A stretch of DNA of 21,666 nucleotides from Candidatus Micrarchaeota archaeon (GCA_964643685.1 CAZXTN010000009.1:1-21666); one strand, 5' to 3'. Counted from the stretch's first letter, positions 3,142-21,666 are shown. Notes: generated by a model from the sequence alone, not told the origin. Translations and numbers: made by a program.

Positions 3142-3249
3142 TGGACTCGCCGCGATTTTCAAAGCAAACGCAACTTGTTGCGTTGATGTTTTTGAACGCG
3201 GGACATCCTGCATGCGAAGCAGGTATTCTACCAACTGAATTACGAGCCC
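3142..3249 (-). tRNA. tRNA-Ala(CGC) with a 35-nt intron in the T-loop (59/60); CCA not encoded
   Basis: Acceptor GGGCTCG/CGAGTCC with G3:U70, D-arm ATTC/GAAT, anticodon arm CCTGC-TT-CGC-AT-GCAGG, T-stem CCGCG/CGCGG. Removing 3156-3190 restores the T-loop TTCAAAT and gives 73 nt. Confidence 0.95.
3156..3190 (-). other. Non-canonical tRNA-Ala intron (59/60) with a relaxed BHB motif
   Basis: Central helix TTCA/TGAA, bulges AA|A and AA|T, internal palindrome AACGCAAC-AA-GTTGCGTT. Confidence 0.9.
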
Positions 3250-5597: not shown

Positions 5598-5750
5598 CTA
5601 TTCTTCTTCTGCGAATTTTTTAATTTCTTCAAAATTTTCCACTATCAGCCTTGCTTTGTTTTTTCCAAAACTGAATGGAAACTTGTCTTCTTCATTCCTT
5701 TTCAATCTTATTATTTTATTTCCTTTAAATTCACCGAATTCAACTGTCAT
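5598..5750 (-). CDS. Small protein (50 aa), possible minimal PC4-like fold
   Basis: Manual translation: MTVEFGEFKGNKIIRLKRNEEDKFPFSFGKNKARLIVENFEEIKKFAEEE. GAGG RBS and a downstream U-tract. Not in the ORF track. Confidence 0.8.
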   Translation of the reverse strand: MTVEFGEFKGNKIIRLKRNEEDKFPFSFGKNKARLIVENFEEIKKFAEEE

Positions 5751-5797
5751 TTTATTTCCTCAACTCCAATTCTAATTTTTTTTCTAACGCGGTCTAC

Positions 5798-5929
5798 TTT
5801 TTCTGAATGCAGGGGATCCTCACCGAAACGCGAGGGGCTTGCTGCCCCTCTCATTTCTAGGGAGTTTCTGATCTTCCCGCAGACCACATGCGCTTCGCTT
5901 AGTGACCTGGTTTTTCTGAATGCAGGGGA
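5798..5929. repeat. 19-bp direct repeat duplicating the tRNA-Leu 3' end and flanking a 94-bp hairpin-rich insert
   Basis: TTTTTCTGAATGCAGGGGA at 5798-5816 and 5911-5929. AGGGAGTTTC also recurs at 5859-5868 and 5930-5939. Confidence 0.92.
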
Positions 5930-5934
5930 AGGGA

Positions 5935-6045
5935 GTTTCGTCAGCTGTCCCCAACTGAAAGCGGACTATTTTTCTTTTTTAAAAAGAAAACCAGACGACT
6001 GAACGAAGTGAACGTCGTCTCAGCCCGCCAGCCGGATACGGCTGT
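5935..6045 (-). other. Long, highly structured T-loop intron (59/60) with a BHL-type splice motif
   Basis: Central helix TTCG/CGAA, bulge AC|T, 5' site AA|A opposite a single A. Contains four hairpins and an 8-bp enclosing stem. Confidence 0.88.
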
Positions 6046-6077
6046 TTCGAACCCTCGAACACACTGAGTGAATGGAT

Positions 6078-6109
6078 AACCCATCACCAGCTTTTGTTTA
6101 GATGGAGAT
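6078..6109 (-). other. Canonical tRNA-Leu intron (37/38) with a BHB motif
   Basis: Central helix CTCA/TGGG, bulges AG|A and TT|A, inner helix TC/GA. Confidence 0.92.
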
Positions 6110-6162
6110 CTTGAGTCCATCGCCGTTGACCGCTTGGCTACCCCTGCATTGTTGTGTGTTTT

Positions 6163-6185
6163 TTTATATATGCACTTCTTTTAAA
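6163..6185. promoter_or_regulatory. Overlapping divergent TATA boxes (endonuclease IV on +, probably leaderless; tRNA-Leu on -)
   Basis: TTTATATA at 6163-6170 lies 22-29 nt before ATG 6192. Minus-strand TTTAAAAG at 6185-6178 lies upstream of tRNA G1. Confidence 0.5.
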
Positions 6186-6191
6186 ATCATT

Positions 6192-6974
6192 ATGGTTGAA
6201 CTTTTGCTAAGCGGCTTGCATGGGATAGCTCCAAGTTTGCTTGAAGGACTTGAAGTGATTAAAAAAAGAGGATGGGGCTTGGAAGTTGAATTTACACACG
6301 GCATCAACATTAAAAAAGAATTAGCTGAAAAAATAGGAGAAAAGTCAGAAATACCTTTGACTGTGCATGCTCCTTATTTCATCAACTTGAATTCCCCTGA
6401 AGCTCAGAAGGTAAAGGCAAGCAAAGCAAGAATTTTAAAAACATTAGAGTACGCTGATCTAATGAAAGCAAGAGATGTTGTAATTCACGCTGGTTTTTAC
6501 ATGAAAAAAAATCCAAAAGAAGTTTATAATAAAATGAAAAAAGAATTGAATGAAATACAAGATAAGATTAAAGAAAAGAACTGGAAGGTTAGATTAAGCC
6601 CTGAGACAATGGGCAAGAAAACGCAGTTCGGAACCCTTGAAGAACTGCTGAATTTAATGAATGACGTGCCTGGCTTGGGCATGACAGTTGATTTCACGCA
6701 TTTATGGGCAGTAAGCCAAGGAAAAACAAAGCCAAGCGAAGTGCTTGAGAAGATTGAACAACAGGACAAAAGTTTTTTGAAAAGGTTTCATGGTCATTTT
6801 TCAGGCATTGTTTACGGCGAGAAAGGAGAAAAATACCATGTTGATTTGAGGGAAAGCGACTTTCCTTATGAAAACTTGGCTCAGGCCCTTAAGGATTTCA
6901 AAGTAAAAGGCACCTTAACATGCGAATCGCCTGACGCTATCTCTGACATTGAATTTTTTGAAAAATTACTTTAA
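6192..6974 (+). CDS. nfo: Archaeal-type endonuclease IV (AP endonuclease 2, TIM barrel)
   Basis: VHAPYFINLNS, VIHAGFY, PETMGKKTQFGTLEE, DFTHL, HGHFSG, CESP. Start moved to ATG 6192 because the track's first 30 aa partly overlap tRNA-Leu. Confidence 0.92.
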   Translation: MVELLLSGLHGIAPSLLEGLEVIKKRGWGLEVEFTHGINIKKELAEKIGEKSEIPLTVHAPYFINLNSPEAQKVKASKARILKTLEYADLMKARDVVIHAGFYMKKNPKEVYNKMKKELNEIQDKIKEKNWKVRLSPETMGKKTQFGTLEELLNLMNDVPGLGMTVDFTHLWAVSQGKTKPSEVLEKIEQQDKSFLKRFHGHFSGIVYGEKGEKYHVDLRESDFPYENLAQALKDFKVKGTLTCESPDAISDIEFFEKLL

Positions 6975-8306
6975 TTTTTTAATGAGCTTGTCTACTGCTT
7001 TTTTGATTTCGTTTCCTTTCTTTTCTCTTATTTCATACCTTACTCTGATTATTGGCTTGTTTGTTTTGACAAGCTTGGCTAAATTGATTGGCGTGCCTGA
7101 AACAATGTAATCAGCTTCTGCTTTGTTTAAAGTTTTTTGCAAGTCCTTCAACTGCTTTTTTGAGTAGCCCATTGCAGGCACTATTTTTTTCAAATGAGGG
7201 AATTTTTCATAAACTTTTTTCAAGCTTCCTGTCAAGTACTTTTTAGGATTGATTATTTTAGCTCCTTGTTTTTCAGCGTAAATGAAAGCTGCTCCGAATC
7301 CAAGCCCGCCGTGAGTTGTTGTAGGCCCATCTTCAACTACAATTACTTTCTTGTTTCTAATTTTGAACTTTTCATCAGCTGCTATCAAAGAGTTTGCATG
7401 AATAATTTTTGCTTTCGAGTTTGCTTTTTCAGCGTTTTTCAGGATTTCAACGACTTGCTTTTTAGATGCAGAATTTTCCTTATTGATGACTATGTAGTCA
7501 GCGCTTCTGAAATTAACTTCTCCTGGATGAGATTTTAATTCATCTCCAGCTCTCAGGGGATCTGCTATGACAAACCACAAGTCTGGCTTGAAAAAAGGAA
7601 CTTCGTTATTGCCTCCGTCCCATACAATTACATCAGCTTCTTTTTCAGCTTGTTTTAAAATTTTTTCATAATCAACTCCTGAATAAACAACCATTCCTTG
7701 TTCAATGTACTGCTCGTACTCCTCCCTTTCTTCAATAGTGCAATTATATTTTTTTAAATCATTGTAAGTTTCAAACCTCATTACAACTTGTTTTTTCAAG
7801 TCACCGTAAGGCATTGGCTCCCTTACAGCAACTGCCTTAAGCCCTTTCTGCTTCAAATAAGACATCAGGTATTTTGACAGCTGTGATTTTCCGCATCCTG
7901 TTCTCACAGCAGTCACTGCTATTACTGGTTTTTTTGATTCAATCATTAAATTTTCAGGCGAAATTAACTTGAAATCAGCTCCTGCTGACAAGGCAATTGA
8001 AGCCAAATGCATCAAGTTTTCATGTGAAACGTCAGAATAAGCAAAAACGCACAACCTTATTTTATTTTTTTTAATAAAGTTTTTCAAACTTGATTCAGGA
8101 ATTGTTGGAATGCTTTTCTTGTAAAATTTTCCAGCTAATTCTTTTGGATAGCTTCTTAGCTTCTTATTAGTGGTGCCGAGGTTCTGTTCTTCAGCCATTG
8201 TAAAAGCAGCAACTTCATAAGAGGGGTTGTTTCTGAAAATCATGTTGAACACATGATAATCCATTCCTGCTCCGCCTATGATTACTGTTTTAGTTTTTTT
8301 AATCAT
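6966..8306 (-). CDS. COG2403 P-loop protein of the cyclic 2,3-diphosphoglycerate synthetase / arginine synthetase (ArcE)-like family
   Basis: IIGGAGMDYHVFN, YPKELAG..Y, FAYSDVSH, AVRTGCGKSQ, REPMPYGDL, CTIEEREEYE, WDGGNN, VVEDGPTTTHGG, PAMGYS. Confidence 0.85.
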   Translation of the reverse strand: MIKKTKTVIIGGAGMDYHVFNMIFRNNPSYEVAAFTMAEEQNLGTTNKKLRSYPKELAGKFYKKSIPTIPESSLKNFIKKNKIRLCVFAYSDVSHENLMHLASIALSAGADFKLISPENLMIESKKPVIAVTAVRTGCGKSQLSKYLMSYLKQKGLKAVAVREPMPYGDLKKQVVMRFETYNDLKKYNCTIEEREEYEQYIEQGMVVYSGVDYEKILKQAEKEADVIVWDGGNNEVPFFKPDLWFVIADPLRAGDELKSHPGEVNFRSADYIVINKENSASKKQVVEILKNAEKANSKAKIIHANSLIAADEKFKIRNKKVIVVEDGPTTTHGGLGFGAAFIYAEKQGAKIINPKKYLTGSLKKVYEKFPHLKKIVPAMGYSKKQLKDLQKTLNKAEADYIVSGTPINLAKLVKTNKPIIRVRYEIREKKGNEIKKAVDKLIKKLK

Positions 8307-8361
8307 TCAAGCACCTATTTCAGCACTTATTTTTTTCACAATTAAAAAAATGAAAATGAAG

Positions 8362-8444
8362 CGTAGGGGACGGGATTCGAACCCGCGCATCCGAAAGGAA
8401 ACTGGCTTAGCAGGCCAGCGCCGTAACCACTTGGCTACCCCTAC
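8362..8444 (-). tRNA. tRNA-Ser(GCT), intronless; CCA not encoded
   Basis: Acceptor GTAGGGG/CCCCTAC, discriminator G, anticodon arm CTGGC-CT-GCT-AA-GCCAG, long variable arm, T-arm GCGGG-TTCGAAT-CCCGT. TTTAAATA box at 8488-8481. Confidence 0.97.
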
Positions 8445-8520
8445 TTTTGAATTTTGCTGAAAAGATTGTATTATTACTATTATTTAAAAGAAGCGCTCAA
8501 TATTTTTTTTTAACAGCTTG

Positions 8521-9216
8521 TTAGTAAGTCATTTTTTCAAAAGCTTCATCAAGGGTTTCAACGCATTCAACGTTAATTGAAACATTTTCAGGAACTTCAT
8601 TGCATTGGCTTGATGGAATTAAAATTTCCTCCACTCCTTTTTGTTCAGCTACTTTTATTTTTACATCAAGCCCGTCGATTTTCAAAATCTTGCCTGTTTT
8701 AGTCAAAGTGCCTGTTAAAACAATTGACTTGTTAATGTTCTTGTTTTCAAGCAAAGCAATCAAGCCAATTGCCATAGTAGCTGAAGCTGAACTGCCGTCA
8801 ATGTCATGTGAAATTGAATCAAGCCTTATGAAAACGTCTTCGTTTCTTAAGCTCGTGTTTGTTTCTTTTTCAACATTGTAAATGACAAGAGGAATTGAAT
8901 CTTGAATAGAGCTTCCGAAAGCATGATTGGTCGTGTCAAAATAAATCCTGCCTTCCCCTGGTTTAAGAGTCAAGTGAATGTCAATCAATTCACCTGTCTT
9001 GTTATCGTCATGCACTCCAACTCCAAAAACAGTGACTGTTCTTCCTGATTCATTAAAAGGGCATTTTATAATTTTCTGAACAACCTGAGGACCCTGCTCC
9101 TGCAAGTAAACGTATTTAATCTGCTGTTCAGGCTGAGTAAAACGCACTCCAACTATGAAAAAAGTTTCAAACAAAATCACTGAAACCAAAATAGCAAAAA
9201 ACTTAACTAACTTCAT
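8521..9216 (-). CDS. Membrane-anchored S16 (Lon C-terminal domain) Ser-Lys protease without an ATPase domain
   Basis: N-terminal hydrophobic helix, PGEGRIY, catalytic DGSSASATMA, LTGTL...G.I..IDGLDVK (catalytic Lys), ILIP, VETLDEA. Confidence 0.88.
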   Translation of the reverse strand: MKLVKFFAILVSVILFETFFIVGVRFTQPEQQIKYVYLQEQGPQVVQKIIKCPFNESGRTVTVFGVGVHDDNKTGELIDIHLTLKPGEGRIYFDTTNHAFGSSIQDSIPLVIYNVEKETNTSLRNEDVFIRLDSISHDIDGSSASATMAIGLIALLENKNINKSIVLTGTLTKTGKILKIDGLDVKIKVAEQKGVEEILIPSSQCNEVPENVSINVECVETLDEAFEKMTY

Positions 9217-9307
9217 CAAATCAACTTTTTTACTTCCTTTATTTTTGTTTAGAAACAGTTATTGTTTTTAAAAACAACTGATAAAACCCACAACTTAAAA
9301 AAAACAA

Positions 9308-9752
9308 TTACTTTTCCTCTTTAACAAGTTCATTATAAGCATTATTCCATTTTAAAACAACTTTATACTCATCAAGCCATTTTTCAGGATGCTTCAAGCC
9401 CATTTCCCCAGCTATCCTCACAGCCTCTTCCTCATCAATAGCTCCTTTACCAAGCAATGAATTAACAGAACGAAATACTTTCAAATTCCTTTTAATAACA
9501 TCAACATCTTCAACTTCCTTCTCTTTTTTCAATTTCCTTCCTTCTTTCCTCTGCTTTTCAACTTTTTCAAAAAAAAACCTTTTTCCCTAAGAAACCCCCC
9601 TGCTGCAACCTTAAATTGCTTTTAAACAAAGAAGAAGCCTTAAAGCCATGTTTTTTCAATTCAGCAAGAGCATCAGGAACGCCGATTTTACCTTTCCTAA
9701 CTTCTTCAGACAATCTTTTTTGCATTTTTCTTTTCTTTAAAAAATTAAGCAA
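9308..9752 (-). pseudogene. Single hypothetical gene of about 147 aa interrupted by a +1 frameshift in a T9 run (track ORFs 9567-9752 and 9308-9532)
   Basis: Deleting one T from the run at 9569-9577 joins ...GKKVFF through EKVEKQRKEGRK to LKKEKEVED in frame. An AGGTGG RBS precedes the upstream start. Confidence 0.75.
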
Positions 9753-9808
9753 ACTACAACCACCTTACTTAGCTTGATTTAAAATCACGCAAAGTAAAAA
9801 GCAAAAGC

Positions 9809-10078
9809 GGCGGGAAGCTCTGGAACGCCCCCAATGCCTCAGGTTCAGTTGACTGCAGCTGCCCTCGTTTCTGCAACCCCAAAGACATCCAATGACCTTG
9901 TTATGGCTGCTCCGATCAAGGCCTGACCAGGTTCCAAAGCCACTGAATCCAATGGGACAGAAAGTCAGCAGGCAGTTGCAGGCTGAAGCCCTTGGCATGG
10001 AAACTGCTTCCAGGATTCGGCTCTCCCTAAAGCAGATTTGAAGACAGGGGACTGCTAACCCCCAAGCCTATTCCCGCC
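9809..10078 (-). ncRNA. ffs: Archaeal SRP (7S) RNA, about 270 nt
   Basis: Helix 1 GGCGGGAA/TTCCCGCC; Alu domain GGGGG-TTAGCAG-TCCCC-TGT with AGCAG/CTGCT loop-loop complementarity; helix 8 GGTCAGGCC..GGAGCAGCC; upstream TTTAAAAA box; downstream U-tracts. Confidence 0.93.
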
Positions 10079-10283
10079 AATTAAATTTATTGCCTTTTGT
10101 TTTTTAAAATACCTACTGCCTATGAAAATTTACTTGAAAAAAGCTGAAAAATAGTGAAAGTTGAAGCAGAAAATTTTTTGAAAAAAATCTCCTTGAAATT
10201 GAAAAAAGCTGAAAAAATTCAGCTTCAATACTTGCCTTGCTGTTGCTGTTTTTTCGTTTGACTTGTTTTGCTCTTGTTGATTG

Positions 10284-10332
10284 TAATAATGTTTATATAT
10301 TAGAAGGGTGTAAATTATGTAGTGAGGTGACG
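10284..10332 (+). promoter_or_regulatory. ftsZ promoter (TATA box) and Shine-Dalgarno sequence
   Basis: TTTATATA at 10292-10299. GAGGTGA at 10324-10330, 6 nt before the GTG start. Confidence 0.7.
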
Positions 10333-10336
10333 ATAA

Positions 10337-11416
10337 GTGGAATCTATTGTAAGAAATGCTATTAATGCAGAAAAACCAACACCCTCAGCAGTAAACTACG
10401 CAGAGGGACCAAAAATAATTGTTATGGGCTGCGGTGGAGCAGGAAATAACACTTTAAACCGTATGGCAAGACTTGGCGTTGCAGGAGCTGAGTTGATTGC
10501 TGTAAACACAGACAAGCAACACTTGACTTTGATACACGATTCTGTGAAAAAACTTTTAATAGGACAATCTGTTACTCGTGGACTAGGTGCAGGTGGTTAC
10601 CCTGACGTAGGAGCAAAAGCAGCTGAAGTATCCAGGGCAACTTTGTCACAAGCACTTGACGGAGCAGACATGGTCTTCCTAACAGCAGGTATGGGAGGAG
10701 GAACAGGAACAGGAGTAGCTCCAATAGTAGCTGACATTGCAAAAGAACAAGGAGCAATAGTAATTGCAATGGTTACTTACCCATTCAGACTAGAAAGAGC
10801 AAGGCTCATAAAAGCAGATGAGGGTATCCAAAAACTAAGAAAAGTAGCAGACACTGTAATCATAATCGACAACAACAGGCTAGTTGAACTAGTTCCAAAC
10901 TTGCCAATTGAACAAGCATTCTCAGTTGCAGACGAAGTCATTGGAAGAGCAGTTAAAGGAATAACAGAAACAATCACAACACCTTCATTAATCAACCTTG
11001 ACTACGCTGACGTAAGAAGCATCATGACACAAGGAGGCGTCTCAGTCATTTCAGTTGGAGAAGCAAAAGGACACCAGAGAGTAGAAGAAGTAGTTGAAGA
11101 CACTATGAGAAACAGCTTGCTTGACATTGACTACACTGGAGCAACTGGAGTATTAATACACATTACAGGTGGACCTGACTTGACAATGGGAGAAGCAAAC
11201 CAAATCGGAGAAAGGCTAACAGAGGCAGTTGACCCAAAAGCAACAGTCATATGGGGAGCAAGAATCATCCCAGAATACGAAGGCAAAATTGAAGTAATTT
11301 CAATCATGACAGGAGTCCAATCATCGCATGTAAGAGGCCCAATGGGAAATGCAATAGCAAGCGGAGCATCTGACAAGGATTTGGATTCAATGCTTGGAAT
11401 AAGCTACTTGAAATAA
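10337..11416 (+). CDS. ftsZ: Cell division protein FtsZ, archaeal FtsZ2 type
   Basis: [73 protein letters not shown]. The NTDKQHL, ERAR and LDYAD variants are typical of FtsZ2. Confidence 0.97.
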
Positions 11417-11459
11417 AAAAAACCAGTTTTTTTAAATTAAAAACAAGAAGAAGGAAAAA

Positions 11460-11525
11460 ATTAACAGGAAGCGTTTTTGATTCCACGCTTTTTCTCACCT
11501 CCTTCACTCTTTTTCTTTTGTTTTT
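11460..11525 (+). ncRNA. Candidate sRNA or 3'UTR element complementary to the ftsZ translation initiation region
   Basis: TCACCTC, GATTCCAC and AGCGTTTTT pair colinearly with the ftsZ SD, start codon and codons 6-8. TTTAAATT lies at 11431-11438 and a U-tract at 11510-11525. No expression evidence. Confidence 0.45.
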
Positions 11526-11573
11526 CAATTCCCACTTAGTTTTAATAACTTGCTTAAACTTAAGTTTGTTTCA

Positions 11574-12581
11574 ATGAAAAAATTAAAAATAGGCAAAGTA
11601 AAGCTAGACAACCCTTTAGTATTGGCTCCTATGGCTGGAGTAACAGACCACGGGTTCAGGCTTCAGGCAAGAAAATATGGAGCTGGGCTTGTATTCACTG
11701 AAATGGTTAACTCCATTCAAGTTATAAGGGCGCATGAAGCATTGGAACTGTTTAAAGGCAAGTCAGTGATTCCCTTGAATGAGTCAATTGACAGGCTGAA
11801 AATTACTGATGAAGAACGCCCAGTTACTATTCAATTATTCGGAGCTGAAGCTAAGACAATGGCTCAAGCAGGGCAAATACTTGAAAAAACAGCTGACATT
11901 ATTGACGTGAACCTCGGATGCCCTTCTCCTAAGATAACACAAGGCGACATGGGTTCAAAACTCCTAATTTACCCTGACAGGATAAAAAAAATATTAAATG
12001 AATTAGTGTCAACTGTGAAAAAACCAGTTACAGTTAAAATGAGGACTGGCTACACTTCAAACAAAAACGCTGTGAAAATAGCGAGGATATGTGAAAAAGC
12101 AGGAATTGACGCTTTAAGCGTTCATGGCAGGACTACAAAGCAAGGTTATTCAGGCAAAGCAGACTGGAACACCATTCTTAAAATAAAAAAAGAATTAAAC
12201 ATTCCAGTGATTGGAAACGGCGACATAACTACCCCTCAACAAGCAGTTGAAAAGCTTGAAAAAGTTGACGGAGTGATGATTGGAAGAGCAGCCAGAGGAA
12301 ACCCATTCATTTTCTCAAGAACAATTCACTTGATTAAAACAGGAGAGTTATTGCCAGAGCCAAGCAAAGAAGATAAAATTGAAGCTTTTAAAGAATATGT
12401 AAGGCTATCTGAAACTAGTTTAACCAAAGGCAAGACAAAATACGAGCAGAGAATTAACAAAAATTTTAAAATGCAAGCTGTTTTTTTCATGCGCGGGTTT
12501 GACGGAGCAGTTGAAATCAGAAGAAAAATAACTTCAATTAAAACAAATGAAGAGCTAATGAAATACTTAAACAGTCTTTAA
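11574..12581 (+). CDS. dusB: tRNA-dihydrouridine synthase, DusB/NifR3 type
   Basis: LAPMAGVTD, TEMV, IQLFG, IDVNLGCPSPK, PVTVKMRTG, VHGRT..QGYSGKADW, IGNGDI, GVMIGRAARGNPFIF. ATG 11574 preferred as the start. Confidence 0.93.
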   Translation: MKKLKIGKVKLDNPLVLAPMAGVTDHGFRLQARKYGAGLVFTEMVNSIQVIRAHEALELFKGKSVIPLNESIDRLKITDEERPVTIQLFGAEAKTMAQAGQILEKTADIIDVNLGCPSPKITQGDMGSKLLIYPDRIKKILNELVSTVKKPVTVKMRTGYTSNKNAVKIARICEKAGIDALSVHGRTTKQGYSGKADWNTILKIKKELNIPVIGNGDITTPQQAVEKLEKVDGVMIGRAARGNPFIFSRTIHLIKTGELLPEPSKEDKIEAFKEYVRLSETSLTKGKTKYEQRINKNFKMQAVFFMRGFDGAVEIRRKITSIKTNEELMKYLNSL

Positions 12582-12600
12582 AAAAAGAGTAGTTACTTCT

Positions 12601-14187: not shown

Positions 14188-14243
14188 GGTATAAATTAAA
14201 ACACTCAAGTTAATAAACTTTTGTCAACAAAAATAACAATTGA

Positions 14244-15269
14244 ATGGGAGTCAATTTAAGCGACGTCATTGAAAAAGAAAAAATAACAATACAGCAATTG
14301 AACGCAAGAGTAATAGCAGTAGACGCATTCAATTCCCTTTACCAATTTCTATCTACAATAAGGCAATTTGACGGCACTCCCTTAATGAATTCAAGAGGAG
14401 AAATCACTTCTCACTTGTCCGGATTGTTTTACAGGACAGTTAAACTAATTGAAAATGAGATAAAGCCAGTTTATGTCTTCGACGGCAAGCCGCCGGAACT
14501 GAAGCATGAGACAATAAATGAAAGAATTCAAGCCAAAAAAGAAGCTCTTGAAAAATACGAAAAAGCAAAACAAGAAAATGATTACGATGGAATGAGGAAA
14601 TACGCGCAGGCAACATCAAAGCTTACAAGTGAAATGATTTCAGAGTCAAAAGAGTTGCTGAAAGCAATGGGCCTCCCTGTTATCCAAGCACCTGGTGAGG
14701 GAGAAGCGCAAGCAGCTTTCATGGCAAGCGAAGGAAAATGCTGGGCAAGCGCGTCACAAGACTTTGATTCACTTTTATTCGGTTCCCCTAGATTAGTCAG
14801 GAACATGACTATAAGCGGCAGGAGAAAGCTTCCTGGAAAGCAAATTTATGTAATGGTTGAACCTGAATTAATAGAGCTTCAGAAGAACTTAAACAAGCTT
14901 GGGTTAACAAGAGAACAGCTTGTTGAAATCGGCTTGATGATAGGAACTGACTTCAACAAAGGAATCAAGGGAATAGGCCCTAAAAAAGCGCTGGAAGCAG
15001 TTAAGCAAGGCAAAACAATAGAAGAAGTAGCGAGTGAAAATGAAGTTGAACTGGAAGTCGACGCAGAAGAATTGAGGAAAATTTTCCTAAAACCCAACGT
15101 GACAAAAGAGTATGAAGTCAAGTTTAAAAAACCTGACACTGACAAGATAAAGGAAATTCTTGTGGAAAAAAACGACTTCTCAGAAGAAAGAATAAGGAAC
15201 TCGATTGAAAAGCTTGTGAAGTTCAGCGAGCAGAAAAACACGCAGTCAAAGCTTGACAACTGGTTTTAA
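14244..15269 (+). CDS. fen: Flap endonuclease 1
   Basis: MGV start, DAFNSLYQFLSTIRQFDGTPL, TSHLSGLFYRT, VFDGKPP, APGEGEAQAA, SQDFDSLLFG, GTDFN.GIKGIGPKKA, C-terminal PIP box QSKLDNWF. Confidence 0.98.
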   Translation: MGVNLSDVIEKEKITIQQLNARVIAVDAFNSLYQFLSTIRQFDGTPLMNSRGEITSHLSGLFYRTVKLIENEIKPVYVFDGKPPELKHETINERIQAKKEALEKYEKAKQENDYDGMRKYAQATSKLTSEMISESKELLKAMGLPVIQAPGEGEAQAAFMASEGKCWASASQDFDSLLFGSPRLVRNMTISGRRKLPGKQIYVMVEPELIELQKNLNKLGLTREQLVEIGLMIGTDFNKGIKGIGPKKALEAVKQGKTIEEVASENEVELEVDAEELRKIFLKPNVTKEYEVKFKKPDTDKIKEILVEKNDFSEERIRNSIEKLVKFSEQKNTQSKLDNWF

Positions 15270-15296
15270 AAAAAGAAAATTTATTACTTGGTTTAA

Positions 15297-16025
15297 ATGA
15301 AAAGAAAAGTGATTTTAGATATTGGAACAGGAAAAGGAGAAAGGGCAGTTGAATTAGCTCTTAAAAATCCAGATGCTGATGTTTACGCAATGGACTTGAT
15401 TAATTATGAAAAAGAGATTAAAGGAGTAGAAGCAGGAAATAATCCTTTAAGAAAAAGAATTAAAAATTTACATCCAATATTAGGAAAAAAAGGGGATGCA
15501 AGAAAAAGTAAAAATTTTGATTTTTTAGGAGACAGAAAAATTGATGAAATTGAAATAAATTTCATTGGAGTTGGAGTTCATAAAATTCCAGAACATTTGC
15601 TTGAAAAGCTATCTAAAAATGCAAAAATAACAATAAGAATAGACCCACAGCATTTAGGTGAAGTATTTGAAGGAATTAAATATGCACAGCAGCCAGAAAA
15701 TAAGAAAGAATTTAACAAAATACAACATGTAACAACAGAACAAATAAAAAATTTCATAGAAGAAGAATTGAAAGACCCCAATTCTTTCACAAGCAAATCA
15801 AAAAAAGAATACGAAGAAGAACTAAAAGAAATGCAAGAAGAATTAAGAAAAAAAGGATTCAGAGTCGTGCTAAAAAAACAATACCCATTTAGAAGAAAAC
15901 CAATAACATCCTATGAAAAAGAAATAACAGAAACAAGAGGTTATTACCATTCAATAATAGCAACTAGAGGAAAACATCATCCTTTAATAGAAAAACTTCG
16001 TTCTAAATTAAGGAGAAGAAAATGA
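15297..16025 (+). CDS. Divergent class I SAM-dependent methyltransferase-like protein
   Basis: N-terminal motif I VILDIGTGKG, then VYAMD and GDA. The remainder is not recognisable. Confidence 0.55.
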   Translation: MKRKVILDIGTGKGERAVELALKNPDADVYAMDLINYEKEIKGVEAGNNPLRKRIKNLHPILGKKGDARKSKNFDFLGDRKIDEIEINFIGVGVHKIPEHLLEKLSKNAKITIRIDPQHLGEVFEGIKYAQQPENKKEFNKIQHVTTEQIKNFIEEELKDPNSFTSKSKKEYEEELKEMQEELRKKGFRVVLKKQYPFRRKPITSYEKEITETRGYYHSIIATRGKHHPLIEKLRSKLRRRK

Positions 16026-16585
16026 CTGAAAAAATAAATGAAAAAGAAGCTGACGAGTACTTAGATGACTTGATAACAGCATTCAGCAGAAGCGACTCCT
16101 TCTGGCTAAGGCAACTGAGCAACAAGTTAATAGAAGAAGCAATAGTCAAAGACAATAAAAAACTAGCAAAATTATCCTTGATTGCCTATGCTTTGTCAAA
16201 ACTAACTTCAAAACCTCACTTCACTTACTTGAAAAACTGGGAAACATTCAGAAAAAACTTGCTAATCTTATTCGCAACTGAAAAGCAAGAGATAAACACA
16301 GCTGAAAAATTCAACCTGCTTCTTGAAAACGTAATAAGCGAAATAAGAAGTTTTGACACAGAAGCAAACAATTACATAAGAGACGTGATTGAAAAAGCAA
16401 GGATAAAGCAAGCTTCCCGAGCTTATGCATTCGGATTAAGCTTAAGCAAAGCAGCTGAGTTAACAGGAGCTGACAAAAGCAGTTTAATGGACTATGTTGG
16501 AAGCACTACAATACACGACCAGCCATTTACCCTTACAAAACCATTGAAAGAAAGATACAAAATGGCTCAAAAAATACTGGAGTGA
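16022..16585 (+). CDS. Helical protein with a C-terminal UPF0175-like HTH (antitoxin-like)
   Basis: AYAFGLSLSKAAELTGADKSSLMDYVG resembles the G.SL.KAAEL.G HTH. Lies 4 nt upstream of a PIN gene. Confidence 0.7.
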   Translation: MTEKINEKEADEYLDDLITAFSRSDSFWLRQLSNKLIEEAIVKDNKKLAKLSLIAYALSKLTSKPHFTYLKNWETFRKNLLILFATEKQEINTAEKFNLLLENVISEIRSFDTEANNYIRDVIEKARIKQASRAYAFGLSLSKAAELTGADKSSLMDYVGSTTIHDQPFTLTKPLKERYKMAQKILE

Positions 16586-16589
16586 TGAA

Positions 16590-17249
16590 ATGGCTGAAAA
16601 GATAATATGCGACGCAGGACCATTAATTTCACTAGCTGACAACTGCGCAATCAACCTGCTGTCAAAATTCAACAACAATTTTTACATAACAAAAAGCGTT
16701 GAAAAAGAAATAGTCAACCACCCGATGGACACTAAAAGATTCAAGCTAAAAGCAATAATGCTCAAAGAAGCAATTCAAAAAGGAGAAATAAAAAGAATAG
16801 AAGAAACAAGCAAAATGCAGCAAGAAGCAAGAGAAGTGATTGAATTAGCAAACAACCTGCTTCATGTCCAAGGAAAAGCAATTAAAATAGTTCATGAAGG
16901 AGAAGCAAGCGCAATAGGCGCCTTAATTGCCCTAAATGAAAAAAACTTGTTAATAGATGAGAGGACAACAAGGCACTTGATAGAAGACCCTGAAAAAGTA
17001 AAAGAATACATGCAGTCAAAAACAAAATACAAAATCAAAATGAACGAAAACGTCCTAAGAGAACTGCAGAAAAAATTCAAAGGAATAAAAGTAATCCGCT
17101 CATCTGAACTAATTGCAAACGCTTATGAAAAAAACCTACTGCCATGGAAAGACGCAAAGTCACTTGAAGCAGCTTTATATGCAGTGAAATTCGCCGGCTG
17201 TTCAATAACAAAAGAAGAAATAAAAGAATACGTCAGAATGCTCGGGTGA
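16590..17249 (+). CDS. PIN-domain protein (DUF3368/COG2405-like)
   Basis: IICDAGPLISLA, ITKSVEKEI, HEGEASAI and LLIDERTTR supply the acidic PIN active-site residues. Confidence 0.85.
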   Translation: MAEKIICDAGPLISLADNCAINLLSKFNNNFYITKSVEKEIVNHPMDTKRFKLKAIMLKEAIQKGEIKRIEETSKMQQEAREVIELANNLLHVQGKAIKIVHEGEASAIGALIALNEKNLLIDERTTRHLIEDPEKVKEYMQSKTKYKIKMNENVLRELQKKFKGIKVIRSSELIANAYEKNLLPWKDAKSLEAALYAVKFAGCSITKEEIKEYVRMLG

Positions 17250-17255
17250 AAAAAA

Positions 17256-17927
17256 GTGTTCCACGTCATCTTTGTAGAGCCAGAGTCAAGCGGAAACATC
17301 GGTTCCCTCACAAGAGTCATGAAAAATTTCAACCTGAAAAACCTTATTCTAATAAACCCCAAATGCGAAGTTGAAAGCCAAGAGTCAAGAAAAATGAGCA
17401 TGCATGCTTGGGACATAATAAAAAATGCGCGAGTAGTGAAGGATTTTAAAACAGCAGTAAAAGGAATAGATTTTGTTATAGGCACAAGCGCCAAGACAAA
17501 AAAAGAATACGACGCAATCAAAACAGCGTACTCGCCAAGAGAGATACTTCCAAAACTAAAAGAAGTTAAAGGAGAAATAGCAATAGTTCTGGGAAGAGAA
17601 AGCAGAGGTTTGACAGACGAGGAATTAAAACAATGCGATGTAAACCTGTTCATACCAACAAACCCTGAATATCCCACCATGAACATTACCCACGCAGCAG
17701 CTGTACTGTTCTACGAATTATTCTCAGCAAAAGAATCAAAAACAAGAAAAGCAAACTTGAAACAAAAACAAGCCCTGATTAAAACAGCTGAACAACTAAT
17801 TGAAAAAACTGATTTTAAAAACAAGAAAGAAGCAAAGCAAGTAATGAAAAATGTGATTAACAGGGCTCTTGTATCAGGCAAAGAAGCGCAAACTCTGATA
17901 GGGGTGCTGAAAAAATTTGTGCAATAA
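17256..17927 (+). CDS. trmJ: TrmJ/LasT-family SPOUT RNA 2'-O-methyltransferase
   Basis: VEPESSGNIGSLTRVMKNF, VIGTSA, LGRESRGLTDEEL, IPTNPEYPTMNITHA. GTG start. Confidence 0.9.
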   Translation: MFHVIFVEPESSGNIGSLTRVMKNFNLKNLILINPKCEVESQESRKMSMHAWDIIKNARVVKDFKTAVKGIDFVIGTSAKTKKEYDAIKTAYSPREILPKLKEVKGEIAIVLGRESRGLTDEELKQCDVNLFIPTNPEYPTMNITHAAAVLFYELFSAKESKTRKANLKQKQALIKTAEQLIEKTDFKNKKEAKQVMKNVINRALVSGKEAQTLIGVLKKFVQ

Positions 17928-18010
17928 TTCCACCAAAATCTTATTTATAAACACTTGTTAATAAATGTTTATAAAGAAAACTTGGTTTTTCTTTACTCGG
18001 TGACGCAAAA

Positions 18011-18340
18011 ATGCCTTTGATAGCTGATATTATCAGAAAATATGAAAACCAAAATGCAGCAGCAAGGAAAGTTGACAAGTCCACTTATGCCTCAAACAGG
18101 GAAGACATTTTCCTAAAAGTTGAACCAAGAGGAGACCCAGTGGGAGACATTACAATCGGACTTGGAGCAGGTTCTATTTGGAAAGCAAAACCAATAAAGC
18201 TCAAAGAACAAAAACCAGCAAAAATTCTGTCAGACGAAGAATGGAAACAAAAAAGAATGAGCTTAGAGCAAGAAGTTGAAATGCTAAAAAAAGAAAACCA
18301 AGAGCTGAAGCAAAAGCTCCAGCAACTAAACCTTGCTTGA
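18011..18340 (+). CDS. Hypothetical protein with a C-terminal leucine-zipper coiled coil
   Basis: Has its own TATA box (TTTATAAA) and GGTGA RBS, heptads LEQEVEMLKKENQELKQKLQQL, and a pyrimidine-rich terminator downstream. Confidence 0.8.
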   Translation: MPLIADIIRKYENQNAAARKVDKSTYASNREDIFLKVEPRGDPVGDITIGLGAGSIWKAKPIKLKEQKPAKILSDEEWKQKRMSLEQEVEMLKKENQELKQKLQQLNLA

Positions 18341-18431
18341 CTGCAACAAAAACCCCCTCTTTCTCTTTCTTTTGTTTTATTTTCAGCAAAACAATTCAAT
18401 TTAAAAACTTAAATTGAGTTATAAAAAATCA

Positions 18432-18656
18432 ATGAGCAAAACAAGCGACTACCTTAAAGAAAAAATAAACAAAACAGAACACTTAACAACAACAATCCTA
18501 ATTTACGTAGCAATGGGGATATTGGTTGGAGAAGTTTATTCATACATCTGTTCAACAACAGAATGCTTATTTTACCCTGTTTACGCACTTATGATACTCC
18601 TTGCAATAAGAACTTACCAGGATTATCTAGCAGGAAAAAAAGAAAAGAAGAAGTGA
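18432..18656 (+). CDS. Small membrane protein with two TM helices
   Basis: Two hydrophobic segments and a basic C-terminal tail. ATG 18432; stop lies 4 nt before the next gene. Confidence 0.7.
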   Translation: MSKTSDYLKEKINKTEHLTTTILIYVAMGILVGEVYSYICSTTECLFYPVYALMILLAIRTYQDYLAGKKEKKK

Positions 18657-18660
18657 CAAA

Positions 18661-18897
18661 ATGAAAAAAGAAGAGTTAATAAAAGAACTAATTAATTTCA
18701 TAGGATTTGAAGAGGAAATAACAATAGATCTAGTGAAAAATTACTTGAAAAAAGTAGAGAACAGCGAATTAACAAAAGAAGAAAAAAAAGAAATTAAAAA
18801 GAGACTATCTGTACTAATGAAAGAAACAGAAGAACACACAGAAAAATTCACTAAACTGCTTGAAAACGTCAAAAAATCAAAAAAAAGAGAGTTTTGA
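18661..18897 (+). CDS. Half ferritin-like (two-helix) protein
   Basis: Helix 1 FIGFEEE, helix 2 LMKETEEH (ExxH). Confidence 0.65.
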   Translation: MKKEELIKELINFIGFEEEITIDLVKNYLKKVENSELTKEEKKEIKKRLSVLMKETEEHTEKFTKLLENVKKSKKREF

Positions 18898-18899
18898 AA

Positions 18900-19145
18900 A
18901 TGGACATAAAAATTAACCATAAAACGACAAGAAAAGAACTGGAACTCGCATTTAAAGAATTAAAACCAATAGAAGAACAAGCAAGAGACCAATACAAGGA
19001 ATTAGCCTCACAATTAAAAGACAAAGAAATAATTGACATACTTCTATTCATTTCAGGACAAGAGCAAAAACACGCAGATTTAGTGCAAGAAATGATAGAA
19101 ATAATTGAAAAAGGGAATAAAAAAACAAAACTCAACTATTTATAA
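18900..19145 (+). CDS. Half ferritin/rubrerythrin-like (two-helix) protein
   Basis: IEEQARDQYKELA..LKDKEIIDILLFISGQEQKHADLV matches the E..A...Y...A....D.......I...E..H pattern. ATG 18900 (alternative TTG 18894). Confidence 0.8.
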   Translation: MDIKINHKTTRKELELAFKELKPIEEQARDQYKELASQLKDKEIIDILLFISGQEQKHADLVQEMIEIIEKGNKKTKLNYL

Positions 19146-19170
19146 ATATAAAAAGTTTCTTTAAAAAAAT

Positions 19171-19917
19171 ATGAAAAAAACAATAATACTGCTAATTCTA
19201 ACACTAACAATAGCACAAGCAACAGACTACTATGCAGACATAAACATAAAAATAGACAACCAAGGATACACCACAATCACAGGAAACACAAACTACCCAA
19301 ACCTCACAACAACAGACAATCCAACATACACTTCAAAAAAAGCAAACTACTGGACGTTCAACATGACAAAACCAGAGCAATTCTCAGAATTCATATACGC
19401 AATACAACTACCTGAAACAGCTTCAATAAACTACATAAAAACAACAGGAACTTTCACAATAACAAACAACGGCAACAACCTAGAGATAAAAGGCTACGGA
19501 GAAAACAAGCCACTTGAAATAACCATACAATACCAAATAAACAAAGAAACAAGCAACCTGCTGATAATGGCAGTGGCAATAATCCCCTTAATAATAATAA
19601 CAGCAGGAGCACACTACTTATACAAAAAAAAGAAAAAAGCAGTAAAAAAACAAACGAAAAAAAAGACAAACAAAAAAACAAAAAAAGAAAACACAGCACA
19701 AAAAAAGAAAATAAAACTACCTCCCCTCCCAAAAAGACAGAAAAAAATAATACAGTTGTTAATAGACAAGAAAAAACCACTTACTCAAGCTCAAATAAGA
19801 AAAGAACTACAATTGCCCAAAGCATCAACCACAAGAAACATAAACGCACTTGAATTAAAAGGACTAATAACAAAAGAAAAAATAGGAATAACAAACCTAA
19901 TAAAAATAAAAAAATAA
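19171..19917 (+). CDS. Membrane-anchored winged-HTH transcriptional regulator (signal peptide, extracellular beta domain, TM helix, Lys-rich linker, wHTH; COG2512-like)
   Basis: Signal MKKTIILLILTLTIAQA, TM LLIMAVAIIPLIIITAGA, wHTH LPKRQKKIIQLL....LTQAQIRKELQLPKASTTRNINALELKGLI.KEKIG.TN.I. Confidence 0.85.
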   Translation: MKKTIILLILTLTIAQATDYYADINIKIDNQGYTTITGNTNYPNLTTTDNPTYTSKKANYWTFNMTKPEQFSEFIYAIQLPETASINYIKTTGTFTITNNGNNLEIKGYGENKPLEITIQYQINKETSNLLIMAVAIIPLIIITAGAHYLYKKKKKAVKKQTKKKTNKKTKKENTAQKKKIKLPPLPKRQKKIIQLLIDKKKPLTQAQIRKELQLPKASTTRNINALELKGLITKEKIGITNLIKIKK

Positions 19918-19920
19918 AAA

Positions 19921-19962
19921 CCGTTCCGGTTCGTTCCGGATAACAACCTTATAAACCGTTCC
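19921..19962 (+). promoter_or_regulatory. Tandem CGTTCC(GG) repeats around a TATA box
   Basis: CCGTTCCGG 19921-19929, TCGTTCCGG 19931-19939, CTTATAAA 19948-19955, CCGTTCC 19956-19962. GGAGGT RBS further downstream. Confidence 0.7.
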
Positions 19963-20009
19963 TCGCACAATAAAAAACATAAAAACTTACAAAAGGAGGT
20001 AAGCAAAAA

Positions 20010-20975
20010 ATGAAAACAAACATACTAAGTGCATTTTTAATAATGGCACTAACAATAAGCCTGATTCCAGCAGCAATGGCAGCAGACACACAACAAAACA
20101 CCCTCCCCCCAAATGAAGAAACACAACTTCAAATAGAAGTACAAGTAATGAACAACGGATTAGGAGCACAAATAAGACTACTTCAGCTGGAAAAAACCCT
20201 AGACATACAAATAACAATAGGAAACAAAGTAATAGAAAAAGCACAAGAACTTGAAAAAAACACAACAGAACTAGAAGCAATACTAACAGAAATGGAACAG
20301 CTTAAAATAGAAGTACAACAAGCAGACCCAAACTCAGAACAAGCAGTGCAAGAATTCATAGACTACAAACAAGAAGCAATAAACCTAACAAAAGAATTCA
20401 GAGAAACAGCAAGAAACTTATTCACAGACGAAGAAATACAACAACTCAGAGAAGAACAAAAACAAATAAGGCAACAGAAAAAACAAGAAGCACAAGAAAT
20501 AAGAGAAAAAATAAGACAATACAACCAGCAAAGACTAGAAAAATTAAAAGAAAAACTAGGAATCAACATACACACAATAATAGAACAAATGAAACAAGGA
20601 GACATAACAACAGAACAAGCAAAAGAAATGATTAAAGAAGAAATAAAAAAAATGCCTAAAGAAAAAAGAATTGAAATTTACAACAAAATAAAAGAAGAAA
20701 AAATACAATCAAGAATACAAGCAAAAGAAAAAATAACAGAGATAATGAAAGAATTCAATAAAAGATACAAAGAAAGGCTAGAAAAAAGACTAAACAAATC
20801 CTTGGAAACAAGCCAAGAAGTTAAAGAAATGGTTCAAAAAAGACTAAGAGAACAAATAAGCGAAACAACAGCATCTGAAAACACAACAAAAGCACTGAAC
20901 AATTCACCACAACAACAAATAGAAAAAACAATAAACCAAACAGAAAACATAATAGGAGGGCATTTAAATGGATAA
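20010..20975 (+). CDS. Secreted coiled-coil protein
   Basis: Signal peptide ending in AMA-A, E/Q/K-rich all-helical body, strong AGGAGGT RBS. Confidence 0.85.
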   Translation: MKTNILSAFLIMALTISLIPAAMAADTQQNTLPPNEETQLQIEVQVMNNGLGAQIRLLQLEKTLDIQITIGNKVIEKAQELEKNTTELEAILTEMEQLKIEVQQADPNSEQAVQEFIDYKQEAINLTKEFRETARNLFTDEEIQQLREEQKQIRQQKKQEAQEIREKIRQYNQQRLEKLKEKLGINIHTIIEQMKQGDITTEQAKEMIKEEIKKMPKEKRIEIYNKIKEEKIQSRIQAKEKITEIMKEFNKRYKERLEKRLNKSLETSQEVKEMVQKRLREQISETTASENTTKALNNSPQQQIEKTINQTENIIGGHLNG

Positions 20976-21162
20976 CAAAACAGCTTTAATAGCAATTGCT
21001 TTAGTAGGAGTTATCCTAATAAGCGGATGCATAGGAACAACAACAAACAACAACACAACAACAAACAACGAACAAGTAACAGCAGACACAGTATCCAACA
21101 GCATAAACCAAGAACTCATAGACGAAAACCAAACAACAGTTGAAATAGGAGACATGATATAA
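20968..21162 (+). CDS. Small lipoprotein
   Basis: Lipobox LISGC, Thr/Asn-rich linker, C-terminus VEIGDMI. GGAGG RBS; overlaps the previous gene. Confidence 0.8.
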   Translation: MDNKTALIAIALVGVILISGCIGTTTNNNTTTNNEQVTADTVSNSINQELIDENQTTVEIGDMI

Positions 21163-21223
21163 AAACCACCCCCTCCTATTTTTTCTTATTTTTTAAAAAA
21201 AAAACAAAAGATGATGAATTAAA

Positions 21224-21493
21224 ATGAACACTTCAAAAGCAAGAGCAATAACCTCAACACTCCTAATAATAACCTTCATAATAGTAACAATCACAGGAAT
21301 AGGATTATACAAAAGCCTACAAGGATGGCTCGCTAAAACAACAAACTGGACATTCCTAGGAATGGACAAAGAAAAACTAGAAACACTACACACAAACACA
21401 GGATTCTTCATGGCAGCATTAATCATAATACACCTAGCACTCAACTACAAAATGTACCTCGCAGAACTCAAAACACTAAAAACTGCCTTTTAA
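21224..21493 (+). CDS. DUF4405-like small membrane protein (cytochrome b-like His pair)
   Basis: TM1 ending in ITGIGLY, FLGMDK..LETLH..TG, IIIHLALNY. Confidence 0.75.
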   Translation: MNTSKARAITSTLLIITFIIVTITGIGLYKSLQGWLAKTTNWTFLGMDKEKLETLHTNTGFFMAALIIIHLALNYKMYLAELKTLKTAF

Positions 21494-21504
21494 ACAAAAG
21501 GCAG
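21483..21504. terminator. Perfect 9-bp inverted repeat over the stop codon
   Basis: CTGCCTTTT-AAAC-AAAAGGCAG. A terminator role is unproven because archaea mainly use U-tracts. Confidence 0.4.
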
Positions 21505-21515
21505 CTCAAAAACCA

Positions 21516-21666
21516 GAGGCATTCGCCACGCTCAGCCCCATTTAAAAACAACTAAAAACATAATAATAAAACGCTGCAATGACGACACCAGGCTGAATGA
21601 CAGCAGCCGTATCCGGCTTCGTTTCGCTCTTGCTTTGCAAGATGCGAGAACTGGCGGGAATAAGCT
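21516..21666. repeat. Cluster of palindromic modules shared with the tRNA-Leu locus
   Basis: 14-nt-loop hairpin at 21516-21539; CAGCCGTATCCGGCT at 21604-21618, identical to the intron (minus strand 6044-6030); hairpin at 21621-21651. Confidence 0.75.

Follow-up and report, generated by a model that had tools for sequence, protein, structure and literature searches.

A short hairpin with a loop of constant length occurs three times in a contig of a Candidatus Micrarchaeota archaeon (GCA_964643685.1 CAZXTN010000009.1:1-21666): within an intron of a transfer RNA (tRNA) gene, directly behind the same gene, and close to the contig end. What is this hairpin, and how did one structure come to occupy such different places? 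The window analysed here is the entire contig (C9, 21,666 nucleotides (nt)); the genome, G000, has 695,104 base pairs (bp) in 12 contigs (C1, C2 etc.), a GC content of 36% and a completeness of 91.75%. The other genomes discussed are coded G044, G069, G081, G082 and G083, and individual loci L0xx. The units that the hairpin forms with other modules are insertions with target duplications of variable length, and the same modules lie both behind genes and in introns. The hairpin itself is probably the signature module of a family of short (~60-170 nt), protein-less, mosaic insertions of DPANN archaea that also serves as a source of tRNA introns.

In the hairpin a covarying outer stem encloses a loop of 14 nt, which hardly varies and has the tip C-GAA-G. 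In each insert the hairpin is combined with at least one other stem-loop, which is the GC-rich module A at hairpin 2 and an AT-rich hairpin at hairpins 1 and 3. An earlier note on this DNA had described the three hairpins as copies of one dispersed module whose stems differ in sequence and stay paired, and all three are indeed present (Table 1). The loop pattern TRARCGNRGYGMAY has 16 occurrences in the 695-kb genome, whereas 100 dinucleotide-preserving shuffles of the genome contain it 0.3 times on average and twice at most. At least five Watson-Crick pairs lie directly adjacent to the pattern in 7/16 genomic copies and in none of the shuffled ones. Thus a chance origin of the hairpins is excluded. 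The earlier note would have abandoned its dispersed element had the genomic count been no higher than in shuffled controls, and the count proves to be far above chance.

A covariance model, R1, was built from 15 aligned hairpin copies. It yields 23 matches in the genome at expectation values (E) of up to 1, 22 of them at E 0.01 or better, so that the scan of this genome and its relatives suggested in the note bears out a dispersed repeat. Within the 15-copy alignment 91.3% of 126 cells are paired and 8/9 pairs have changed on both sides. The observed pairing or covariation score is reached by 0/500 shuffles, and if the partner is slid by 1-3 columns as a control, pairing amounts to only 23-46%. 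Stem covariation, the lack of which would also have told against the dispersed element, is therefore real.

Table 1. Positions of the hairpins, the inserts, the flanking repeats and the host tRNA gene in the window
Feature	Position	Strand	Description
Hairpin 1	5993..6020	+	AGACGAC / TGAACGAAGTGAAC / GTCGTCT; 7 perfect pairs, 14-nt loop; model R1 E 4.4e-8
Hairpin 2	5880..5909	-	CAGGTCAC / TAAGCGAAGCGCAT / GTGGTCTG; 8 pairs, two G.U; model R1 E 5.6e-9
Hairpin 3	21516..21539	-	GGGGC / TGAGCGTGGCGAAT / GCCTC; 5 pairs, one G.U; model R1 E 9.3e-7
94-nt insert	5817..5910	-	hairpin 2, then module A (~66 nt, GC-rich, two stems); nhmmer E 2.3e-19; no open reading frame (ORF)
Direct repeat, copy 1	5911..5929	-	TCCCCTGCATTCAGAAAAA; last 9 nt of the tRNA and 10 nt of trailer
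Direct repeat, copy 2	5798..5816	-	identical 19 nt, directly behind the insert
tRNA-Leu(CAA) gene with two introns	5921..6147	-	ARAGORN cloverleaf of 84 nt after in silico intron removal
32-nt intron of tRNA-Leu(CAA)	6109-6078	-	after position 37; ARAGORN after removal
111-nt T-loop intron of tRNA-Leu(CAA)	5935..6045	-	member of a multi-gene intron family
AT-rich partner hairpin of hairpin 3	21483..21504	-	CTGCCTTTT..AAAAGGCAG; contains the stop codon of ORF 21224-21493
Probable insertion unit of hairpin 3	21470..21559	.	~61-nt two-hairpin insert 21484-21544 between imperfect repeats
Imperfect direct repeats at hairpin 3	21470-21483; 21545-21559		AAAACACTAAAAAC and AAAACAACTAAAAAC; 14/15 nt, A-rich, 1-nt indel

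The inner mini-hairpin of the loop covaries as well, as had been claimed: the G-C pair is replaced by A-U in two TGAACGAAGTGAAC copies, and other genomes show this replacement too, on stems of different sequence. The tip is GCGAAGC in hairpin 2 and in 12/15 aligned copies, ACGAAGT in hairpin 1 and GCGTGGC in hairpin 3. The commonest loop type thus carries the exact sequence of the d(GCGAAGC) mini-hairpin DNA, for which a review gives a melting temperature of 76.5 C and an occurrence at single-strand priming sites (PMC13037366); its stability is taken here as that published value. However, the mini-hairpin does not explain the conserved loop positions T1, A3, G11 and A13 outside it, and this conservation of outer loop bases argues for recognition of the hairpin by a protein. 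The sequence AAAACCAG, which had been seen to abut all three hairpins, does contact each of them, but not on the same side: in the sense of the loop it lies 5' of hairpins 1 and 2 and 3' of hairpin 3 (minus strand GCCTC-TGGTTTT). CCAG adjoins only 4/15 aligned copies, and the general 5' flank is a run of A followed by AG. The pair counts of the hairpin stem (3 G.U versus 2 C.A and 5 G.G mismatches) do not decide which strand folds, nor whether the element acts at the DNA level, as the note had supposed.

Known loop geometries were compared by their consensus, no tool being applied. The kink-turn and K-loop, box C/D and UAA/GAN loop readings were rejected since they do not fit the asymmetry of 1 nt by 2 nt. 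On the minus strand hairpins 1 (5993-6045) and 3 (21483-21539) have a common layout, namely the hairpin, TGGTTTT and an AT-rich hairpin. The loops of these two hairpins are reverse complements of each other on that strand, which looks like a flip of the loop within a palindromic stem.

Evidence of insertion comes from the locus of hairpin 2. The hairpin forms the first bases of the 94-nt insert just behind the tRNA-Leu(CAA) gene, and the end of this gene is repeated on the other side of the insert. A relative is represented by a metagenome contig (L031) that is syntenic, encodes a neighbour protein with 74% identity and has the same small downstream ORF. There tRNA-Leu(CAA) has a single 3' end and no insert, which provides one orthologous empty site. 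Hence the unit of hairpin 2 is an insertion in the lineage of G000. With its flanking direct repeats and its absence from the syntenic locus it behaves as a small non-autonomous insertion, in agreement with the earlier note. In 101 kb of metagenome DNA, taken from 26 loci that surround the neighbour gene, model R1 has 0 matches.

The tRNA of L031 has a T-loop intron at the same site as in the window, with an unrelated sequence, and T-loop introns therefore turn over. The L031 intron (2240-2350, minus strand) is of similar length and begins with GAAAGGATTACAC..., resembling the start of the T-loop intron of tRNA-Gln at C1:166. This resemblance suggests that a second family of introns exists and that introns turn over at one site.

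Module A, the partner of hairpin 2, has ~14 copies in the genome as found by nhmmer, 13 of which were aligned. Directly after 11/14 copies there is an exact repeat of 10-32 nt of the upstream sequence. These lengths come from a script that undercounts, because the module coordinates overlap the repeat, and the repeats read by eye are longer: 19 nt at the window copy, ~60 nt at tRNA-Ile (C3:79728), 38 nt at C3:44342, ~27 nt at C3:66391 and ~52 nt at C3:6654. At the last three loci the duplicated sequence is a protein C-terminus. Overall, the repeats measure from ~14 to ~60 nt, and the targets are tRNA 3' ends and protein C-termini, with four protein genes whose C-termini are duplicated. In three clean cases (window 5910, C3:6654 and C3:66391) the stem begins 0-1 nt past repeat copy 1, and the A-run at the end of this copy recurs in copy 2. 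Since the A-run is common to both copies, the 5' junction is ambiguous over at least five bases.

The hairpin and module A are separable. Module A occurs without the hairpin in 3/14 copies (C2:1837, C6:731 and C1:166577), several hairpins have partners other than module A, and a longer series of small palindromes surrounds the hairpin at C4:96, C3:71137 and C6:17483. Two successive hairpin-module inserts lie behind one tRNA gene at C6:36230-36620 (L015), so that the 3' exon is present in three copies; each of them includes the last six intron bases, TGAAAC, and the second insert has a third loop type, TTCGGCGGGAGCCGAAC. The linker of module A contains the same ~44-nt insertion (ATCAATCGCCTAAAGACTCAAACGTTTTTCCTTAACAGGAAAAAC) at C1:114098, C3:26813, C6:731 and C1:32284. 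At C1:32170 the loop of module A's long stem contains a nested pair, the hairpin with an AT-hairpin. The linker insertions and this nesting are insertions within insertions.

At hairpin 1 the same kind of module is found inside a tRNA gene. Taking out the two introns listed in Table 1 gives a canonical tRNA-Leu(CAA), the restored tRNA by which an archaeal intron is recognized, although neither ARAGORN nor Rfam calls this gene on the raw DNA. The ARAGORN cloverleaf obtained after in silico intron removal confirms the claim that hairpin 1 lies within a tRNA-Leu intron and antisense to the tRNA. The hairpin forms the tip of the T-loop intron. Copies with 82-85% identity over 127-238 nt are found at C1:112160, C6:17228 and C1:32508 in the same T-loop position, and after removal ARAGORN identifies their hosts as tRNA-Leu(CAG), tRNA-Trp(CCA) and tRNA-Ile(UAU), each with an additional canonical intron. 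Introns at least 80% identical are thus shared by at least two tRNA types of one genome, as is typical of transposed or paralogous introns.

At C6:36298 and C2:13290 the same intron core (CAGCCGTATCCRGCTGGCGGGCTG...AGTCYGCTTTCAG) carries a different small tip hairpin. It replaces both hairpin 1 and its AT-rich neighbour in 2/6 full-length intron copies. Hairpin 1 therefore does not belong to the core of this spreading intron and forms an exchangeable module at its tip. The exon sequence TTCG can pair with the intron sequence CGAA, flanked by 3-nt unpaired stretches with one extra A; this pairing was read by eye and not by a tool for bulge-helix-bulge (BHB) motifs. Module A takes part in introns as well, as the 3' portion of the T-loop intron of tRNA-Gln (139 nt). 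A 67-nt intervening sequence in G044 corresponds approximately to one two-hairpin unit in antisense, and its removal restores tRNA-Pro(TGG).

In the same genome, at L020 (1313-1445), a second copy of the first 15 nt of tRNA-Pro(TGG) lies ~118 nt upstream, the duplication enclosing another two-hairpin unit, whose first hairpin is different. A candidate tRNA-Ser host at C2:3369 was rejected, as ARAGORN did not confirm it after removal of the T-loop intron, and the intronic position of that hairpin copy is our own reading. On the minus strand of the window, at 3193-3249, there is a weak Rfam match to tRNA (30.3 bits versus a gathering score of 29), which ARAGORN does not call and which may be an interrupted tRNA gene. 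Rfam also identifies an archaeal signal recognition particle RNA on this contig.

Hairpin 3 probably belongs to a two-hairpin unit between imperfect repeats. On the minus strand it is followed by TGGTTTTTGAG and the AT-rich hairpin (21504-21483). The layout of a hairpin, a T-rich spacer and a hairpin of the form NNCTTTT..AAAAGNN is also found in genomes of other families, where it lies between direct repeats.

Several observations concern the DNA around this unit. Past the stop codon of ORF 21224-21493 the same frame is open for 57 codons to the contig end (21494-21666); this could be a longer ORF interrupted by the two-hairpin insert, or the frame may be open by chance. The last 55 bases of C9 (21612-21666) are identical to the first 55 bases of C3, and a stretch with 87% similarity is present at C1:236951-237004. 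To judge from this overlap, contigs C9 and C3 probably adjoin. The region 21580-21666 together with L067 (1-120) contains box C/D-like words (ATGACGA, CTGA and ATGACAG); in addition, 15 nt of it (CAGCCGTATCCGGCT) match the core shared by the T-loop intron family. In L067-L069, which continue the DNA at the contig end, Rfam finds nothing at E 0.1 or better.

The exact loop TAAGCGAAGCGCAY is present in 1/41 genomes, namely in G000 itself. A lineage-specific reading derived from this result was overturned by the matches of the covariance model in relatives. Model R1 has matches in 4/31 genomes of the same phylum and in 25/49 genomes of the order of G044, which according to kinship labels belongs to another phylum. 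Copy numbers reach 27 per genome, with many copies at contig ends; G069 has 27 copies and G000 has 23. In 27 copies from the G044 order 98.9% of 189 cells pair and 7/9 pairs covary, in an alignment fitted to the model.

The orientation of the copies bears on the alternative that the hairpin is a functional RNA motif and not a mobile element, i.e. a co-transcribed signal for 3'-end processing, stabilisation or protein binding, comparable to the protection of mRNAs by repetitive extragenic palindromic (REP) sequences and bacterial interspersed mosaic elements (BIME). The flanks were read by eye. Sixteen of the 23 copies in G000 have the same direction as the gene that ends upstream of them, five are intronic and antisense, and two, including hairpin 3, are undecided. 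Four of the five antisense copies are paralogues, and the host of the fifth is the unconfirmed one at C2:3369. The idea of the earlier note that orientation is independent of transcription is not upheld by these counts. The co-orientation behind genes is what selection for an RNA signal would maintain, and the conservation of the loop across phyla with covarying stems is typical of a protein-bound RNA hairpin. Module A points in the same direction: its long stem has 18 G.T versus 3 A.C pairs and one U.G pair that is invariant in 13/13 copies. These counts favour folding of the strand that runs from the hairpin to the module, while the RNAalifold energies of module A are similar on the two strands (-19.6 and -18.7).

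However, an RNA motif leaves unexplained the duplicated gene ends and the absence of the insert from L031. The intronic copies are opposite in sense, and other genomes differ in how the copies are oriented to the tRNA. No Rfam family reaches the gathering score on the hairpins or module A, and in the region 5600-6300 the best match is miRNA-type noise at E 0.12. Reading the hairpin as a terminator was rejected too, as a T-run follows only hairpin 3 and some foreign copies, whereas most copies in G000 are followed by TGCRGGG. Taken as the whole explanation, a functional RNA motif is rather unlikely, and such a function could have been acquired secondarily by an inserted element.

The copies are concentrated at tRNA genes, as the earlier note had expected: 16/23 lie in, or at most 250 nt from, 31 tRNA loci, together 2.6% of the genome (binomial P ~1e-20), a figure inflated by the fact that 11/31 loci were found through these same elements. 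Four copies adjoin tRNAs that ARAGORN found on its own. The preference for tRNA 3' ends could suggest integration scars, left when an element with a tRNA-targeting tyrosine or serine integrase decayed or was imprecisely excised, with attL/attR-like repeats around a remnant. Direct repeats of tRNA 3' ends around foreign DNA are the classic att signature, and at tRNA targets repeat copy 2 mostly starts in or beside the T-loop or T-stem. Disruption of tRNA genes by an integrating element has been proposed by Sugahara et al. 2012 (PMC3293823). On the other hand, the inserts differ from att-flanked elements in being uniformly tiny (60-170 nt), with defined ends and no gene. The same hairpin and module are found at many unrelated targets, the four protein C-termini included, and many integrase specificities would be needed. 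Moreover, Phage_integrase (PF00589) has no match in the genome. Scars of this kind are an improbable source of the units. Since PF00589 gives no match in G000, not even a recombinase of the Xer type is seen there.

The search for other mobility enzymes in G000 was equally negative at its completeness of 92%: there are 0 matches to RVT_1 (PF00078), Y1_Tnp (PF01797), GIY-YIG and DDE_Tnp_1 (PF01609). DDE transposases were represented by the last family alone, and the PF01797 control has matches in 6/14 known genomes. A zinc-ribbon match in G000 is below the threshold (23.6 bits versus a cut-off of 26.3). Among five other hairpin-rich genomes RVT_1 has no match, and reverse transcriptase was thus not found in 6/6 hairpin-bearing genomes tested, G000 included. 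Y1_Tnp is present in two of these five (G069 and G044) and was not found in G081, G082 and G083, which have 9, 5 and 5 hairpin copies and are 79-88% complete.

These results speak to the reading preferred in the earlier note, according to which the hairpin is a REP-like or IS200/IS605-derived palindrome, related to REP-associated tyrosine transposases (RAYT) or palindrome-associated transposable elements (PATE) and moved as single-stranded DNA by a Y1/HUH transposase. It shares with such palindromes the short, GC-rich, imperfectly palindromic form, the conserved loop, the high copy number, the position behind genes and the mosaic arrays similar to BIME. Yet the linkage with Y1/HUH or GIY-YIG genes that the note had proposed is not observed, as no such gene was found in G000 with its 23 copies. 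At the tnpA-tnpB genes of G069 model R1 has no match at E 0.01 or better in the surrounding 4.3 kb, and in G044 the single R1 match is ~800 nt from tnpA, beyond another ORF. Transposition of single strands by HUH enzymes is not known to produce a target duplication, whereas repeats of 14 to ~60 nt flank the inserts considered here. Finally, a conserved 14-nt loop with covarying stems takes the place of the conserved stem of REP and IS200/IS605 palindromes. Kinship with these elements is not supported and is very improbable. At one end of the IS200-like element of G044 (L071, 585-610) tnpA is flanked by a hairpin, GCGCCCGC-GAA-GCGGGCGC, that has the C-GAA-G tip and not the architecture of the 14-nt loop.

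A classical miniature inverted-repeat transposable element was rejected too, as the hairpin at one end and an unrelated module at the other do not form terminal inverted repeats, the flanking repeats measure ~14-60 nt, not a fixed short length, and PF01609, the one DDE family searched for, has no match. Least probable of all is that nothing moved and the hairpin is a piece of one old tRNA intron family spread by duplication or gene conversion among tRNA genes, the other copies being chance relics: 4/23 copies are paralogous introns and most lie at tRNA loci, but this is contradicted by the copies behind four protein genes with duplicated C-termini, by unrelated partner modules, by the presence in a different phylum in different contexts, and by the two intron copies with another tip, which make the hairpin an add-on.

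If the hairpin is the signature of a family of mosaic insertions, its two settings can be described by one scheme. An insert that lands behind a gene leaves the gene intact and is followed by a dead copy of the gene's 3' end, as at hairpin 2. Where the same modules lie inside a tRNA gene, they persist as a part or all of an intron, as at hairpin 1; protein-dependent splicing at a BHB site would then rescue the tRNA. The hairpin presumably folds on a single strand and may act as a structure for stalling, priming or recognition. The 3' end of module A, GCGKTTCGG, is often followed by TGAAAC-TCC and resembles a T-arm with the end of a T-loop intron. Together with the A-run junctions, this resemblance suggests joining by annealing at short homologies, the A-run serving at the hairpin side and the T-loop-like sequence at the other. 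The route may be template switching or target-primed copying, in either case run by enzymes of host replication or repair or by an enzyme provided in trans.

A further-reaching proposal, put forward tentatively and as a possibility only, is that such tiny modular cassettes constitute an undescribed class of prokaryotic mobile DNA. They would be copied by annealing-guided template switching or by a hairpin-reading enzyme, with no transposase, integrase or reverse transcriptase of their own, and would duplicate 6-60 nt of the target. Within a palindromic T-loop or anticodon loop they would become BHB introns, offering a route to archaeal tRNA introns and perhaps to split tRNA genes.

A number of points weigh against a mobile family. 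The empty-site evidence consists of a single orthologous site, L031. No polymorphism of empty and filled sites was seen within one population: this DNA is present in eight public runs, with no RNA run listed among them, and the contigs of four of these, which break at repeats, contain no empty-site variant. Their unitigs break at 5845-5998, and the few joints (e.g. 5904 to 6005) seem to be caused by repeats. The evidence at hairpin 3 is weaker than at hairpin 2, as its repeat is imperfect, A-rich and of only 14/15 nt, and 3/14 module A copies have no exact repeat of at least 10 nt. The microhomologies at junctions are readings by eye of a few cases. The GCGKTTCGG end is constant in most copies of module A, which fits a defined molecule better than a random drop-off of a polymerase. 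The copies of module A diverge by 9-25% (blastn), although some flanking repeats are perfect (38/38 at C3:44342). Divergent modules beside perfect repeats are not predicted by a simple recent burst; gene conversion or selection on the repeats could account for them. The model does not explain the orientation rule of G000, co-oriented behind genes and antisense in introns. Elsewhere the rule fails: at L063 and L064 it is the 5' end of a tRNA that is duplicated, and the L066 copy has the sense orientation within a tRNA. Lastly, the searches of G000 found no mobility enzyme.

Two of the closest known systems concern tRNA introns, and each of these systems has one or two features in common with the present inserts and differs in others. 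The transposed tRNA introns of Thermoproteales (Fujishima et al.) are likewise nearly identical and occupy the same non-canonical position in several tRNA types; here, the T-loop introns of 110-114 nt are found in Leu(CAA), Leu(CAG), Trp and Ile(UAU). The difference is that the modules of G000 also lie outside tRNA genes between duplicated targets, and that a hairpin with a conserved loop crosses phyla. In the open-access literature searched, neither module inserts outside tRNA genes nor a cross-phylum hairpin were found for the Thermoproteales introns. The T-loop introns of Candidatus Micrarchaeum ARMAN-2 are similar in their position, and in the introns studied here the exon TTCG/TTCA can pair with the last intron bases CGAA/TGAA in a central 4-bp helix. 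Fujishima et al. 2011 reportedly described T-loop BHB introns at position 59/60 in ARMAN-2 together with a three-unit splicing endonuclease, a work said to concern splicing and not intron origin. Another parallel is the target-primed insertion of short and long interspersed nuclear elements, with target duplications of variable length, A-run junctions and short non-autonomous elements. Unlike these, the present inserts come with no reverse transcriptase in any of the six genomes and no poly-A tail, the A-run being at the hairpin side and derived from the target.

No publication on this hairpin, or on hairpin cassettes of DPANN archaea with target duplication, was found in the open-access literature searched. 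A preprint of 2026 on Asgard tRNA genes, in which copying from one tRNA to another, mobile elements and reverse transcription were tested as routes, leaves the arrival of introns open (10.64898/2026.10.13.758758). For practical work, standard finders overlook tRNA genes of this kind, assemblies break at the repeats and contigs end in them. In G000, one genome holds the same modules in both states, as inserts behind genes with a duplicated target and as a part or all of tRNA introns. One 32-nt hairpin is thus a concrete object for following the arrival of a tRNA intron. The module is conserved in at least two archaeal phyla, and its insertions may show how archaeal tRNA introns arise.

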